The notes under the pieces: model-generated
Seen by the model: the letters and a program-made list of their open reading frames with translations, nothing else
Database searches by the model: none
Told to the model about the DNA's origin: nothing
Shown: piece after piece, positions 32,120 to 47,680 of the stretch
How positions within the stretch are numbered: the first letter of the stretch is position 1
How the letters are laid out: every line of letters starts with the position of its first letter
NCBI GenBank assembly: GCA_963786615.1
Contig: CAWAZT010000014.1
Span: 438,344-502,343, forward strand
Direction of reading: 5' to 3'
DNA length: 64,000 bases
Source of the DNA: an uncultured Acidobacteriota bacterium
GTDB lineage: Bacteria > Acidobacteriota > Vicinamibacteria > Vicinamibacterales > 2-12-FULL-66-21
Translations under genes and position numbers: made by a program

Positions 32120-33088
32120 CGTTACTCGATTTTCGTTGCGCGTTGTGACCAGGCTCGTCGGAGCCCGTCAGGCTCGACTGACGCAGCGCGGCGGCGCCCA
32201 TCAATCCGCCCATCCCCATCGATTCGACGGCGCTGCTCGGAATCAACATCAGCGCGCCTTTCTCCTTCAAGCCCTCGTAGAGCATGTTCATCGCGCGCAG
32301 ATGGAGCGCGGTAGGGTTGTGCAGGTACGACTTCGACGCTTCCTCGAACGAGTGCGCGATTTCCAGCTCGGCCTGACCGAGGATGATGCGCGCCTGTTTC
32401 TCGCGCGCGGCCTGCGCCTCGCGCGACATCGCGTCCTGCAGCGAGTCCGGGATGACGACGTCGCGCATCTCGACCGACTGCACCGTCACGCCCCACGGGG
32501 TCGATCGCTGATCGATCAGCTTCTGCAGCTCCTCCTCGATCCGCTCGCGTCCTTTCAGGAGATCGCCGAGCGATGTGCGGCCGATGATGTCGCGCAGCGC
32601 CGTCTGTGCCGCCCAGCTGACGGCCTGCTGGTACTCCTGAACTTCGAGCGCTGCTTTCTCCGGGTCGTAGACCAGCCAGAACAAGACGGCGTCGACGTTG
32701 ACGGGAACGGTATCGGACGTCAGCGTCTGCTCGGCGGCGAAGCTCGTCGTGATCACCCGTTGATCGACCCAGCGCGTCACGCACATCCACGAACGGCATG
32801 ATCCAGAAGAGGCCGGGTCCACGCAGGCCGACGTACCGGCCGAGGCGCAGGACGACCGCGCGCTCCCATTGCTGCGCGATCTTTGGCGCCTGCGCGAGCG
32901 ATGAAGCCGAGCGCGAAGCCGATGAGGACCGGCCACGGGCTGGCGGCTCGGATCGTTCCCGCGAGCCCGAGTCCGAGCGGGATCAGCATCAGCGCGACCG
33001 AGACGATGTTCGTCCGCGTCTCTCGTGTCACCGATTCCTGGGTCGTGCGTCTCCCGGACAACGGCAAGATCACTTGGGCCACGGTCAT
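32120..33088 (-). CDS. SPFH/band-7 (stomatin/QmcA-like) membrane protein (>=2 frameshifts; 3' end approximate)
   Basis: N-terminal TM IVSVALMLIPLGLGLAGTIRAASPWPVLIGFALGFIARAGAK (32777..33088); SPFH core VNVDAVLFWLVYDPEKAALEVQEYQQAVSWAAQTALRDIIGRTSLGDLL...PWGVTVQSVEMRDVVIPDSLQDAMSREAQAAREKQARIILGQAE (31215..33254 frame). Start ATG overlaps the gntR stop (ATGA). Confidence 0.6.
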
Positions 33089-33486
33089 GCTCCTTGTTGG
33101 CGCCGCCCCTCGATCTCCGGCAGCGCGTCGTCCACGCTGAAGCCATGGGTCGAGAGGTCGGCGAGAAAGCGGTCGATGAGCCGGCGCAGCTCGGATTGCC
33201 TCGCCGTCGCGTCGGGGCGACGAGGTCGGCCTGCAGCGCCACGAAGGTGCCCACCCCGCGCCGGGTTTCGAGGACCCGTGCGCGCTCGAGGTGGGCGTAG
33301 ACCTTGGCGACGGTATTCGCGTTGACCCGGAGGTCGACTGCCAGCTGTCTGACGGTCGGGAGCTGGTCGCCCGTGCGCAGGCGCCCGGCGGCGATCGCCG
33401 CGAGGATGCCCCGCTCGAGCTGCGCGTGCAGCGGCGTCGCGTCGCTGCGAGTCGATCGCGAATCCGTCCCAGGGGCTCACAAGCAT
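33085..33486 (-). CDS. GntR-family (YhcF-like, HTH only) transcriptional regulator (one frameshift at ~33440)
   Basis: Hand translation: ...IDSQRRDA|TPLHAQLERGILAAIAAGRLRTGDQLPTVRQLAVDLRVNANTVAKVYAHLERARVLETRRGVGTFVA (winged-helix GntR signature); C-terminal tail in ORF 33085..33516. Confidence 0.6.
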   Translation of the reverse strand: MLVSPWDGFAIDSQRRDAAARAARAGHPRGDRRRAPAHGRPAPDRQTAGSRPPGQREYRRQGLRPPRARTGPRNPARGGHLRGAAGRPRRPDATARQSELRRLIDRFLADLSTHGFSVDDALPEIEGRRQQGA

Positions 33487-33489
33487 CAA

Positions 33490-33509
33490 TGTACTACTAC
33501 AATAGTACA
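33490..33509. promoter_or_regulatory. Perfect inverted repeat TGTACTA-N6-TAGTACA overlapping a TTGACA-17nt-TACATT promoter directly upstream of the GntR gene (putative autoregulatory operator)
   Basis: Minus strand reads caacTTGACAttgtactattgtagtagTACATTgATGctt; forward tgtactactacaatagtaca at 33490-33509. Confidence 0.5.
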
Positions 33510-33522
33510 ATGTCAAGTTGGG

Positions 33523-33657
33523 GTCAGACCCCGTTAAACGGGCGCACTATCTATGGACTTATGGTGATGGGACCACAAGGCCTGGTGACGCCAGCTGCCG
33601 GATTGGGGTCAGACCCCAATCCAGCGTGCGTTGACGCCTGGTGGGGTCAGACCCCAC
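33523..33657. repeat. Three copies of the 13-bp perfect palindrome GGGGTCAGACCCC between the glmS stop and the GntR promoter
   Basis: ttGGGGTCAGACCCCgtt (~33523), attGGGGTCAGACCCCaat (~33603), tggtGGGGTCAGACCCCacg (~33645); spacings ~80 and ~42 bp. Confidence 0.7.
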
Positions 33658-33662
33658 GAGCT

Positions 33663-35506
<1,844 letters not shown>

Positions 35507-35543
35507 ATCCTGCAGTCCTTGAAGTCGACCGTCGACTACTGGT

Positions 35544-36924
35544 TTACGTCGATTTCTTCTTGCGCTCGACCCAGCCGGGCTTGTTGACCTGCTTGCCGCG
35601 CGCGATGCCGAGCGCGCCTTCCGGCACGTCCTCGGTGATCGACGAGCCCGCCGCGACGTACGCACCGCGTCCGACGCGGACCGGCGCGATCAATTGCGAG
35701 TCGCTGCCGATGAACGCATTGTCCTCGATCACCGTCGGATTCTTGTGCGTGCCATCGTAGTTGCACGTGATCGTGCCCGCGCCGACATTGACGTGTGCGC
35801 CGATCGTCGCGTCGCCCAGGTACGTGAGGTGACTCGCCTTCGATCCCGGTCCAAGCGTCGTCTTCTTGAGTTCGACGAAGTTGCCGACCTTCGCGTCTCG
35901 CTCGACGCGGGACTGCGGCCTGACGTGCGCGAACGGGCCGACGTGCGCGCCGGTGGCGATGTACGACTCGGTGATCACGCAGAAGTTGTTGATCACGACG
36001 CCGTCTTCCACCGTGCTGTCGGCAATCCGCACGCACGCGTGGACGACACAGCCGGAGCCGATCGCCGTCTTGCCTTCGAGAAAGACGTTCGGGTGAAGCA
36101 CGGTGTCGGGACCGACCGTCACGTCTGGGCCGATCCATGTCGACGCGGGATCGACGATGGTCACGCCGGCTGCCATCAACTCCTCGTTGCGATCCTGCTT
36201 CAGAATGACGCTCACGTCCGCCAGCTCCCTTCGGCTGTTCACCCCGAGGATCTCCCGTGCGTCGTCGAGCCTCACGGCATCGACGACGAGGCCGCGCGTG
36301 CGGTAGATCCGCACGAGATCCGGAAGGTAGTACTCCCGCTGCGCGTTGTCGGCGCCGACGTTGGCCAGCGCCTCGAACAACGGATCCAGATCGAACGCGT
36401 AGATGCCGCTGTTGATCTCCCGGATCCGTCGTTGGTCGCGGCGTCGCATCCTTCTCCTCCACGATCGCGGCAAGCGACTCGCCGTCGCGCACGATGCGGC
36501 CGTACCCGTGAGGGTCGTCGACGAGGGCGGACAACACCGTCGCTGCCGCACCGCGTGCACGATGCCTCTCGACCAGCTGACGGAGCGTCGTCGCCCTGAG
36601 CAACGGAACATCGCCCGACAGCAGGACCAGCGTTCCGCGCGCCCCCCGCAAGTGCGGTTCCGCCTGCAGCAGCGCATGGCCGGTTCCCAGCTGTGGCTCC
36701 TGCAATGCAAACCGCAGGCCCGGCCGTTTCCCGACCGCGCGCTCGACATCCTCCGCCTGGTGGCCGACAACCGCAACGATTGTGGAGGGTTGGAGCGACT
36801 CCGCCGTCCGGAGCACCCGCTCGATCAGCGACAATTCTCCCGCACGGTGGAGCACTTTGGGCAGCGCGGACTTCATGCGCGTACCTTTTCCTGCCGCGAG
36901 AATCACAACATGCAGATCTGACAT
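35544..36924 (-). CDS. glmU: Bifunctional UDP-N-acetylglucosamine pyrophosphorylase / glucosamine-1-phosphate N-acetyltransferase (one frameshift at ~36440)
   Basis: N-terminus [30 protein letters not shown]...LSGDVPLL (35536..37206 frame from the ATG at 36924); C-terminal LbH acetyltransferase ...[11 protein letters not shown]...hexapeptide repeats...[17 protein letters not shown] (35544..36776). Confidence 0.85.
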
Positions 36925-36991
36925 GAATGTCGGGCGCCTTCCGTGGGGATCATCGTCGCATGCGCCGCAGTCGCGGGACGATGGAATCCCG

Positions 36992-37744
36992 CTAGCGCCG
37001 GATTTTGCGTGGCTGGGGGCCGGCGTGCTTGGCGGGGTCGGCGTCCGGCGCCGGCGACTCGAGCGCGTCACGAAAGGCTTCGAGCTCCCGCAGCGCATCC
37101 AGATCGGGATCCTGCCGTGCGAGGGCGCGATTCTCGGGGTTGAGCGTGACGGCGTGGCGCAGGTGCTCGACCGCCGCCGCGCGGTCTCCGCGGCGTGTGC
37201 TCGCAACCGCCATCATGTAGTGCGCGTGGTCGTGGCGCGGATTCTCGCCGAGCGCCCGTTGCAGGTGCTGCACGGCCACTGATTCCTGATCGGCGTTCAG
37301 GGCGATGGTCGCCTCGTAGACCCATTCGTCGGCCGTTCGTGACACCGGCTCCCGGGGCTCGAGCTCGCGCTCGCAGACCTTCAGATACAGCCGTGCACGT
37401 TCGAGGAGCTCGCGCTCGTCGGGATACTGCTGGATCACCGAGCGCAAGGCGTTCGCGGCGGCGGAGAAATCCCGCCGCTGGAGGGCCTGCAGTCCGCGTT
37501 CGTACAGGCCGACGGCCTCGTGGTACGTGGGCTTTCGGGCAGGCGCCGGAGGCGCTGCCTGCGGTGCCGCGGCCTGAACTGCGGCAGGCTGCGCCGGCGC
37601 GCTCGACGCTGTCCGGGACGCCAGCCTGGGCCGCTTCGAGGCTCTGGCCCTGGTTCGGGACGAGGAGCCCCGGCTTGCCGCTCGCTGCCGTGCCGGCTTC
37701 CGTTTCGGGGTTCGGGCGGTGGTCGCCCGGCGTGCTTTCGCCAT
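36992..37744 (-). CDS. Hypothetical protein with basic N-terminus and TPR-like C-terminal half
   Basis: 250-aa ORF; RK-rich N-terminus; ...YHEAVGLYERGLQALQRRDFSAAANALRSVIQQYPDE...YLKVCERE... helical-repeat character; no specific family recognised. Confidence 0.45.
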   Translation of the reverse strand: MAKARRATTARTPKRKPARQRAASRGSSSRTRARASKRPRLASRTASSAPAQPAAVQAAAPQAAPPAPARKPTYHEAVGLYERGLQALQRRDFSAAANALRSVIQQYPDERELLERARLYLKVCERELEPREPVSRTADEWVYEATIALNADQESVAVQHLQRALGENPRHDHAHYMMAVASTRRGDRAAAVEHLRHAVTLNPENRALARQDPDLDALRELEAFRDALESPAPDADPAKHAGPQPRKIRR

Positions 37745-37961
37745 CGCAATAGCCTGCTGGAGTCGAGAATCCAGCGGGTGGACAGTAGCAAATCCCGTCG
37801 CGTGGGGTCAAGACGACCAAAGGCCAATGTATGTTTGGTCTAACAACCAATATATGTTACCGCTTCCCCAAGAGATCATAGAGCGCGTTCGGCGCTCAGC
37901 CCATGGCGTTTCCCGACTTCTTTGAGCGCTTCTCGGCGCCTCAAACCCTCTTGTTTTGGTC

Positions 37962-47589: not shown

Positions 47590-47680
47590 TGGAGGGGTGG
47601 CCGAGTGGTTGAAGGCGGCGGTCTTGAAAACCGCTGTACGGGGAACCGTACCGTGGGTTCGAATCCCACCTCCTCCGCCA
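47590..47680 (+). tRNA. tRNA-Ser (anticodon TGA)
   Basis: GGAGGGGTGGCCGAGTGGTTGAAGGCGGCGGTCTTGAAAACCGCTGTACGGGGAACCGTACCGTGGGTTCGAATCCCACCTCCTCCGCCA folds as a class II tRNA: 7-bp acceptor, 3-bp D stem, anticodon loop CTTGAAA, long variable arm, T-loop GGTTCGAATCC, encoded CCA. Confidence 0.9.

Follow-up and report, generated by a model that had tools for sequence, protein, structure and literature searches.

The 174-nt spacer between glmS and gntR contains two unrelated things, a cluster of REP-like repeats and the promoter of a gntR–SPFH operon. The three 13-bp palindromes that stand out in this spacer are a REP-like repeat cluster of the GGGG[AT][CG]A[CG]-tagged family, not sites for a second regulator, as an earlier note on this DNA had proposed. 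The overall best explanation for the locus, to which we assign a probability of roughly 0.8, is a REP-like cluster tied to the repeats of TIRYT-type transposases, together with an autorepressed and leaderless gntR promoter. Both the palindromes and the GntR operator/promoter are ordinary representatives of known kinds.

The window, i.e. the whole stretch of DNA analysed (64 kb), has a G+C content of 65.8%. The genes around the spacer are all on the minus strand, in the order TPR, glmU, glmS, the spacer, gntR and SPFH/Band-7; the gntR stop and the ATG of the SPFH gene share bases in ATGA, and the pair is therefore considered to form one operon. Because glmS, glmU, gntR and the SPFH gene each carry 1-nt homopolymer frameshifts, the contig is taken to be prone to indel errors; the last ~30 codons of glmS are frame-shifted by a 1-nt insertion in GGG 33752-33754, and the gntR reading frame is interrupted twice by 1-nt indels. 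The features considered here are as follows.

33661..35506, minus strand: glmS, with 614-aa orthologues; C terminus ...KSVTVE, TAG at 33663-33661
33643..33655, plus strand: REP-like palindrome copy 1, with the GGGGTCAG head on the plus strand, 5 nt past the glmS stop
33605..33617, plus strand: REP-like palindrome copy 2, the core of a perfect 23-nt palindrome at 33600-33622
33520..33532, plus strand: REP-like palindrome copy 3, not extended by its flanks; -7.7 kcal/mol as RNA
33488..33516, minus strand: sigma-70-type promoter, TTGACA at 33516-33511, 17-nt spacer, TACATT at 33493-33488; 10/12 matches
33490..33509, no strand assigned: inverted repeat TGTACTA-N6-TAGTACA, proposed operator of the putatively YtrA-like GntR; it occupies the -35/-10 spacer and runs into the -10
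33085..33480, minus strand: gntR, a short GntR-family regulator gene of ~130 aa, read as YtrA-like, with a GTG start at 33480
32130..33088, minus strand: SPFH/Band-7 gene, second gene of the operon; 3' end approximate owing to a frameshift

The palindromes are exact copies of GGGGTCAGACCCC on the plus strand, at 33520-33532, 33605-33617 and 33643-33655, and so are as identical as the earlier note had stated. Its spacing figures of ~80 and ~42 bp are replaced by measured start-to-start distances of 85 and 38 nt. No further copy is present in the 64-kb window at up to one mismatch; at up to two mismatches there are 9 matches in the 64 kb, against 1.84 expected, a number reached by 0/100 shuffles. 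A degenerate copy reported near 37797 (GGGGTCAAGACGACC) is not among these matches, requires an indel as well as mismatches to align and is off the family tag, and is not retained. All three copies read GGGGTCAG on the plus strand, and hence match the GGGG[AT][CG]A[CG] head motif at one end.

The self-complementarity of the 13-mer, which is a perfect palindrome, is confirmed, with RNA folding energies that range from -7.7 to -24.4 kcal/mol depending on the copy. Copy 1 with its flanks (33638-33660) gives an 8+2 bp hairpin of -13.2 kcal/mol, and the palindrome around copy 2, GGATTGGGGTC-A-GACCCCAATCC, has 11-bp arms and folds at -24.4 kcal/mol (z -6.3), its near-palindromic arms reaching 33597-33625. 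The whole glmS–gntR spacer is much more stably folded than its shuffles (z -6.1). The hairpins are thus not all weak. They have no T-run behind them on the transcribed strand, and a terminator scan of 33000-34000 returned 0 sites. The repeat cluster lies within the 3' flank of glmS. Copy 3, for its part, adjoins the -35 hexamer both in the window and in one of the related loci described below (L121).

Several known classes were considered for the palindromes and dropped. The hairpins are present without a T-tract, so the window copies are not canonical terminators and the intrinsic (Rho-independent) class was set aside. A GT[AG]G tag is absent from the positions 0-2 nt 5' of the hairpin foot (the flanks read gtt/att/ggt on the plus strand and cgt/att/aac on the minus strand); this tag defines the classical GTAG-tagged REPs, and the palindromes are therefore not filed with them. 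The inverted-repeat tips of Tn3-family elements start with GGGGTCTGAC..., and these too were dropped, there being no further similarity and the repeat units flanking Y1 rather than DDE genes. Rfam has no family for the region at gathering thresholds, and relaxing the search to E<=10 adds nothing but meaningless microRNA matches; nor did full-text literature searches with the 13-mer, as DNA or as RNA, or with shorter cores return anything relevant.

Comparison of orthologous spacers bears directly on whether the palindromes have a fixed role at this locus. With the GntR protein, its frameshifts repaired, as query, relatives were found in their thousands, the best being 130-aa proteins named from Vicinamibacterales, and 11 orthologous loci of the same gene order were fetched; nine lineages, the window and eight others, were compared. 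The synteny TPR-glmU-glmS-gntR-Band7 is kept in the Vicinamibacterales orthologous loci, with a glmS–gntR spacer of 65-238 nt. The 13-mer is found in only 3/9 of the lineages compared, and among those three its number, position and orientation vary: there are three copies in the window, three in L121 (96% GntR identity) and four in L122 (88%), those of L122 being at other positions than in the window and one of them being inverted. The exact 13-mer is absent from the spacers of L123, L124-127, L128, L135, L137, L144 and L146. This series of 3, 3, 4 and then 0 copies confirms presence/absence polymorphism at orthologous sites, and the palindromes are not a conserved part of glmS or gntR regulation.

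The head word GGGGTCAG/CTGACCCC does occur in other arrangements in the spacers of L124, L135 and L144. In L124 and L135 it makes up the arms of longer hairpins; the L144 spacer has two direct GGGGTCAGGTCT, and that of L123 has a degenerate palindrome. The word is not enriched elsewhere in those orthologous loci. The spacer looks like one that has long been occupied by a related repeat family with turnover, rather than like a fixed regulatory site, though a local function is another way to explain why GGGGTCAG recurs in this same spacer in several divergent species.

The 13-mer is widely dispersed in other genomes. The window has one cluster only and no Y1 gene, so what follows on dispersal and on a cognate transposase applies to relatives and to other lineages; dispersal, for its part, is seen in other Vicinamibacterales (L017, L047, L064, L107, L112). 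When one genome per species was scanned for pairs of copies separated by 10-40 nt, at least 120 loci were obtained, where by our own estimate at most a few are expected by chance. The matches listed comprise 318 copies in about nine phyla (Pseudomonadota, Actinomycetota, Acidobacteriota, Bacillota, Planctomycetota, Bacteroidota, Omnitrophota, Spirochaetota and Gemmatimonadota), and 0/120 of the paired-motif loci among them have glmS or gntR. Lineage-specific flanks usually lengthen the palindrome, e.g. aaatGGGGTCAGACCCCattt. Among the Acidobacteriota, L022 has its pair between rplR and rpsE, within the spc operon, L047 has one between genes in tandem and L017 one in a divergent spacer, and three separate 13-mer sites lie within 8 kb in L112; in other Vicinamibacterales, there are also in-frame intragenic pairs, in a XerC/D-like gene (L064) and in a RarA-like gene (L107).

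An orientation census of the flanking genes (convergent 25, tandem 32, divergent 15), made with a crude GC3-based gene caller that mis-called the window, argues, if only weakly, against a bias toward promoters. In viral contigs, where the numbers are small, the test motif scored 6 loci and four control palindromes scored 0, 5, 0 and 1; the control that scored, GGGGACWGTCCCC, is not a true control because it belongs to the same tagged family (L204).

The available evidence further ties the 13-mer to Y1 transposases. While the 64-kb window has no Y1_Tnp (PF01797) gene, such genes are present in 4/120 of the paired-motif loci among the matches listed, and for two of the four, when scanned, the best NCBIfam match was REP-associated tyrosine transposase, at 76-77 bits versus a cut-off of 80. 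(A first tblastn lead, which used an E. coli RayT query, was superseded by the Pfam/NCBIfam scans and by the proteins found.) Three of these four Y1 genes (L096, L094 and L079) are bordered on both sides, within ~50 nt, by the 13-mer or by inverted copies with one mismatch, in the case of L079 by the inverted pair GTGGTCTGACCCC ... GGGGTCAGACCAC.

A motif-independent test employed 80 metagenomic transposase loci chosen by protein similarity alone. GGGG[AT]CAG is present within 250 nt upstream, in the orientation of the gene, at 50/77 loci (4/77 in the opposite orientation), and its complement within 250 nt downstream at 42/74 (1/74 in the opposite orientation); 33/71 loci have the two together, the background being 0.23 per kb. 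The 13-mer itself, at up to one mismatch, lies beside the transposase at 12 metagenomic loci, on both sides at 7 of them. The repeats beside metagenomic transposases are extended near-palindromes of the same design, e.g. GGGGACAGTCCCC (L204), which explains why a 'control' palindrome scored in viral contigs. The connection of the GGGG[AT][CG]A[CG] tag of the 13-mer with the flanks of group-1 RAYT/TIRYT Y1 transposases is thus confirmed, independently, in the 80 metagenomic loci. A profile search with the transposase family gave, among its best 120 matches, Burkholderiales-type names only and no Vicinamibacterales TIRYT with the 13-mer.

By analogy with REPs and with IS200/IS605 elements, an HUH tyrosine transposase would copy such repeats to new sites as single-stranded hairpins, and the repeats would pile up as dimers or clusters, mostly behind genes. 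The repeats of the window are probably transcribed as the 3' tail of glmS, where the hairpins may keep 3' exonucleases off the glmS mRNA or reduce read-through into gntR.

There is precedent for repeats of this type. RAYT-like genes flanked by terminal inverted repeats (TIRs) with GGGGWSAS have been described as TIRtrons or TIRYT (Di Nocera et al. 2013, PMC3733652); some of the TIRs are self-complementary, are arranged as dimers or in clusters and make up families of moderate abundance, acidobacterial transposases were included, and REPs were noted within replication/repair genes (PMC3733652). The corresponding transposases are TnpA-Y1 subclass 2.1, equivalent to RAYT group 1 and to TIRYT, with the consensus GGGG[AT][CG]A[CG] (Quentin et al. 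2018, PMC6006769), RAYT group 1 having been defined by Bertels et al. 2017 (PMC5581495). The flanking repeats of group-1 RAYTs are given as of modest copy number, and subclass 2.1 genes as being without adjacent REP-like secondary structures (PMC6006769, PMC5581495).

Since GGGGTCAG fits the tag, both as GGGGWSAS and as GGGG[AT][CG]A[CG], the palindromes belong to this known kind. They share with the TIRs of TIRYT their self-complementarity, their arrangement in dimers or clusters, a location that is mostly extragenic but in some cases within replication/repair genes, a broad distribution over phyla that takes in Acidobacteria and, in other lineages, cores that border Y1 genes as inverted pairs. 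By contrast, the unit here is cut to a perfect 13-bp palindrome with scarcely any conserved flank, the window has no transposase gene, and what the papers describe for subclass 2.1 is modest-copy terminal inverted repeats without REP-like hairpins.

The palindromes also resemble the classical REP/BIME/REPIN elements known from Enterobacteria and Pseudomonas (RAYT groups 2 and 3), which are likewise short GC-rich hairpins that stand in regularly spaced clusters behind genes and come and go between relatives. Both are tied to a single-copy HUH Y1 transposase, its gene being bordered by the repeats (for the palindromes, in other lineages), and mRNA 3' stabilisation and partial termination are the proposed side effects. 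However, the hairpins here have neither 5' GT[AG]G at the foot nor a bulge in the stem, and the unit is of 13 nt versus 20-40 nt. The relatives lying in frame in the XerC/D-like (L064) and RarA-like (L107) genes recall Rickettsia palindromic elements (RPEs) and intragenic REPs, although the copies in the window are intergenic and RPEs are longer and have a CGTC tag.

The proposal that the palindromes are operators of a second dimeric transcription factor, controlling the gntR–SPFH operon or glmS, has their form and placement in its favour, in that they are perfect 13-bp dyads in a promoter-bearing spacer, copy 3 lies upstream of the gntR promoter with only 3 nt between it and the -35 hexamer, and the GGGGTCAG head word recurs in the spacer of several divergent orthologous loci. 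We nevertheless regard it as very unlikely. The sites are missing from most orthologous spacers and are otherwise unconserved in number, position and orientation, even though the adjacent operator block is invariant; the same 13-mer also occurs in the ribosomal spc operon, behind unrelated genes and, within the same order, in frame in coding sequences; and its flanks co-vary so as to lengthen the hairpin, which is needless for a double-stranded binding site. Its occurrence in 3/9 lineages only, at unrelated loci and in about nine phyla, and with the tag of Y1 flanks, leads us to abandon the distinct regulator of the earlier note. That note had itself set a dispersed REP-like repeat, with no bias toward promoters, against its own proposal, and this is what we judge the motif to be, on the strength of relatives and other lineages.

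It may also be asked whether the palindromes are glmS 3'-end hairpins, i.e. terminators or mRNA stabilisers, that were duplicated locally with no link to a transposase. Copy 1 begins 5 nt past the glmS stop, RNA folding gives stable stems (and a stable spacer as a whole, z -6.1), different hairpins occupy the same place in L124 and L135, and in several phyla the core is flanked by A-/T-tracts in the manner of a bidirectional terminator. This origin is improbable, however, given that none of the three copies has a T-tract behind it (0 sites in the terminator scan), that identical cores with unrelated spacers are found at many other loci of no relation to this one, some of them inside operons or genes, where termination would be harmful, and that the core bears the tag of repeats bordering Y1 transposase genes. 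The objection concerns origin only, as a REP-like element can still serve as a 3' stabiliser. An origin by chance, or as an artefact of an error-prone long-read contig, might be suspected from the several homopolymer frameshifts in the window; it is hardly credible, as the observed count is reached by 0/100 shuffles, and it is refuted by L121 and L122, independent assemblies with the same elements at the same locus.

With the palindromes assigned to the REP-like GGGG[AT][CG]A[CG]-tagged family, a false lead is removed from the locus, where nothing points to a second regulator. The hosts of GGGGWSAS-tagged REP-like repeats now include a soil lineage that has been little studied, and the 13-mer provides a simple sequence handle with which these repeats and their Y1 transposases can be followed from phylum to phylum. 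In genome annotation, such repeats are easily confused with operators or terminators.

The 13-bp palindrome is constant, near letter for letter, in at least nine phyla, from Acidobacteriota to gut Lachnospiraceae, and this near-perfect constancy of the core across phyla somewhat exceeds the published description. We tentatively suggest, at slightly short of even odds, that GGGGTC(A/T)GACCCC and its sibling GGGGAC(A/T)GTCCCC represent the terminal repeats of group-1 RAYT/TIRYT in a dispersed form that is REPIN-like and makes hairpins. If so, the most widespread RAYT group would maintain populations of REP-type hairpins (as doublets, as arrays of regular spacing and as in-frame insertions into repair genes), in contrast to the description of group 1 as having low-copy flanking repeats without REP-like structures, and the apical sequence of the hairpin would be a strongly constrained recognition element.

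The other element of the spacer, the promoter and putative operator of gntR, is conserved. The perfect inverted repeat TGTACTA-N6-TAGTACA, overlapping a TTGACA-17-TACATT promoter, was found as the earlier note had described it, at 33490-33509, with the promoter on the minus strand matching at 10/12 positions. The 29-nt promoter/operator block, TTGACATTGTACTATTGTAGTAGTACATT, is near-invariant in the 11 orthologous loci (9 non-redundant lineages), with GntR identity down to 73%, while the sequence on either side of it is unalignable between them. The inverted repeat occurs once per close orthologous locus, and the window has no second one even at 3 mismatches (expected 0.04). A sigma-70 promoter leaves the sequence of its spacer unconstrained; the invariant -35/-10 spacer therefore indicates a bound protein. 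The GntR protein encoded just downstream is the obvious candidate, and most likely the ligand of TGTACTA-N6-TAGTACA; the near-invariance of the block between unalignable flanks thus bears out the earlier reading of the repeat as an operator, here a putative site.

The start of gntR has to be revised. Its orthologues begin with (M/V)SPW, which in the window corresponds to GTG 33480 and not to ATG 33486, so the former is taken as the true start codon; the -10 hence ends 7 nt before the start codon, rather than 1 nt before an ATG as previously proposed. The distance from TACATT to the start codon (GTG/ATG) is 6-8 nt in 11/11 loci, leaving no room for a Shine-Dalgarno sequence, and the gntR transcript is therefore predicted to be leaderless, one of two options that the earlier note had raised, with the predicted transcription start at the GTG. 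In the mechanism that we propose, a YtrA-like GntR dimer would sit on TGTACTA-N6-TAGTACA and block RNA polymerase, giving autorepression, and transcription would begin on the GTG start codon itself to give a leaderless gntR–SPFH mRNA. The regulatory logic of the locus would then be that of a single conserved, autorepressed, leaderless promoter, for a GntR–SPFH operon that is conserved across Vicinamibacterales.

The protein encoded directly downstream of the inverted repeat, of ~130 aa, has PF00392 as its only domain, and its best solved relatives are GntR-family proteins of 113-134 aa, the deposit names of which are mostly uninformative; the description of GntR as YtrA-like is our own reading of these short relatives. 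In this regard the proposed operator resembles those of the YtrA subfamily, e.g. of Bacillus subtilis YtrA and Corynebacterium glutamicum CGL2947, where a short GntR protein, with a winged helix and a minimal C-terminal domain, is encoded by the first gene of its own operon, and a perfect inverted repeat with GT...AC cores lies over the promoter. By contrast with those systems, the half-site sequence and the 6-nt spacing are lineage-specific here, the transcript is predicted to be leaderless, and the partner of the regulator is an SPFH/Band-7 protein instead of an ABC transporter.

Copies of the 13-mer often recur at regular intervals, both in the window (33605-33655) and at other loci (L122 2421-2509, L036, L084, L062, L090, L120, L141). 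The start-to-start distance is 38 nt in the window and in L122 alike, and the spacers between copies are unrelated, at least in these two. Arrays with a spacing of 27-37 nt occur in Thermoleophilia and other lineages. The periodicity of the arrays is BIME-like.

Directly behind genes of low-GC Bacillota, paired 13-mers make up the two arms of a single long hairpin, the GC-rich 13-mer core contrasting sharply with the local composition. Such pairs were noted at four loci:
L006 609-656, long-hairpin 13-mer pair
L055 6871-6922, long-hairpin 13-mer pair
L058 1205-1264, long-hairpin 13-mer pair
L008 4413-4456, long-hairpin 13-mer pair
As judged by eye for L006, L055 and L008, the spacer between the 13-mers is apparently part of the hairpin. 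A related Y1_Tnp gene is present in an Oribacterium (Bacillota) MAG (L086 7202-7768); no 13-mer adjoins it, though there is a pair 3 kb off, and the transposase link is therefore less clear in Gram-positives.

In one Acidobacteriota MAG (L022 3927-3976), two 13-mer copies interrupt the ribosomal spc operon between rplR and rpsE; they carry A- and T-tracts and have the appearance of bidirectional terminators. A strong terminator at this position would be harmful. In other Vicinamibacterales, 13-mer pairs are apparently in frame within coding sequences (RarA-like, XerC/D-like), contributing segments such as GSLGSDPSGRDRTVGSDPRP, and so recall the intragenic REPs and RPEs of replication/repair genes:
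L107 7160-7205, apparently in-frame 13-mer pair
L064 3741-3790, apparently in-frame 13-mer pair
L112 7951-7988, apparently in-frame 13-mer pair

The gntR stop and SPFH/Band-7 start share an ATGA overlap (window 33085-33088), as they do in orthologues, which suggests translational coupling of the regulator and the membrane-scaffold protein. At orthologous loci of one Vicinamibacterales lineage (L124-L127), an outer-membrane beta-barrel gene in the opposite orientation is inserted between glmS and gntR, and the promoter/operator block is kept:
L124 9207-9875, opposite strand, outer-membrane beta-barrel gene (PF13505), glmS-gntR interval

Single-base indels in homopolymer runs, a pattern typical of uncorrected long-read assembly, disrupt several essential genes of the window, making its ORF-based annotation unreliable:
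33752-33754, glmS indel
33214-33217 and about 33440-33450, gntR indels
35536-37206, glmU, indel-broken
about 32130-33088, SPFH gene, indel-broken
The sole Rfam match at gathering thresholds across the whole window is a tRNA gene (47591-47677, + strand).
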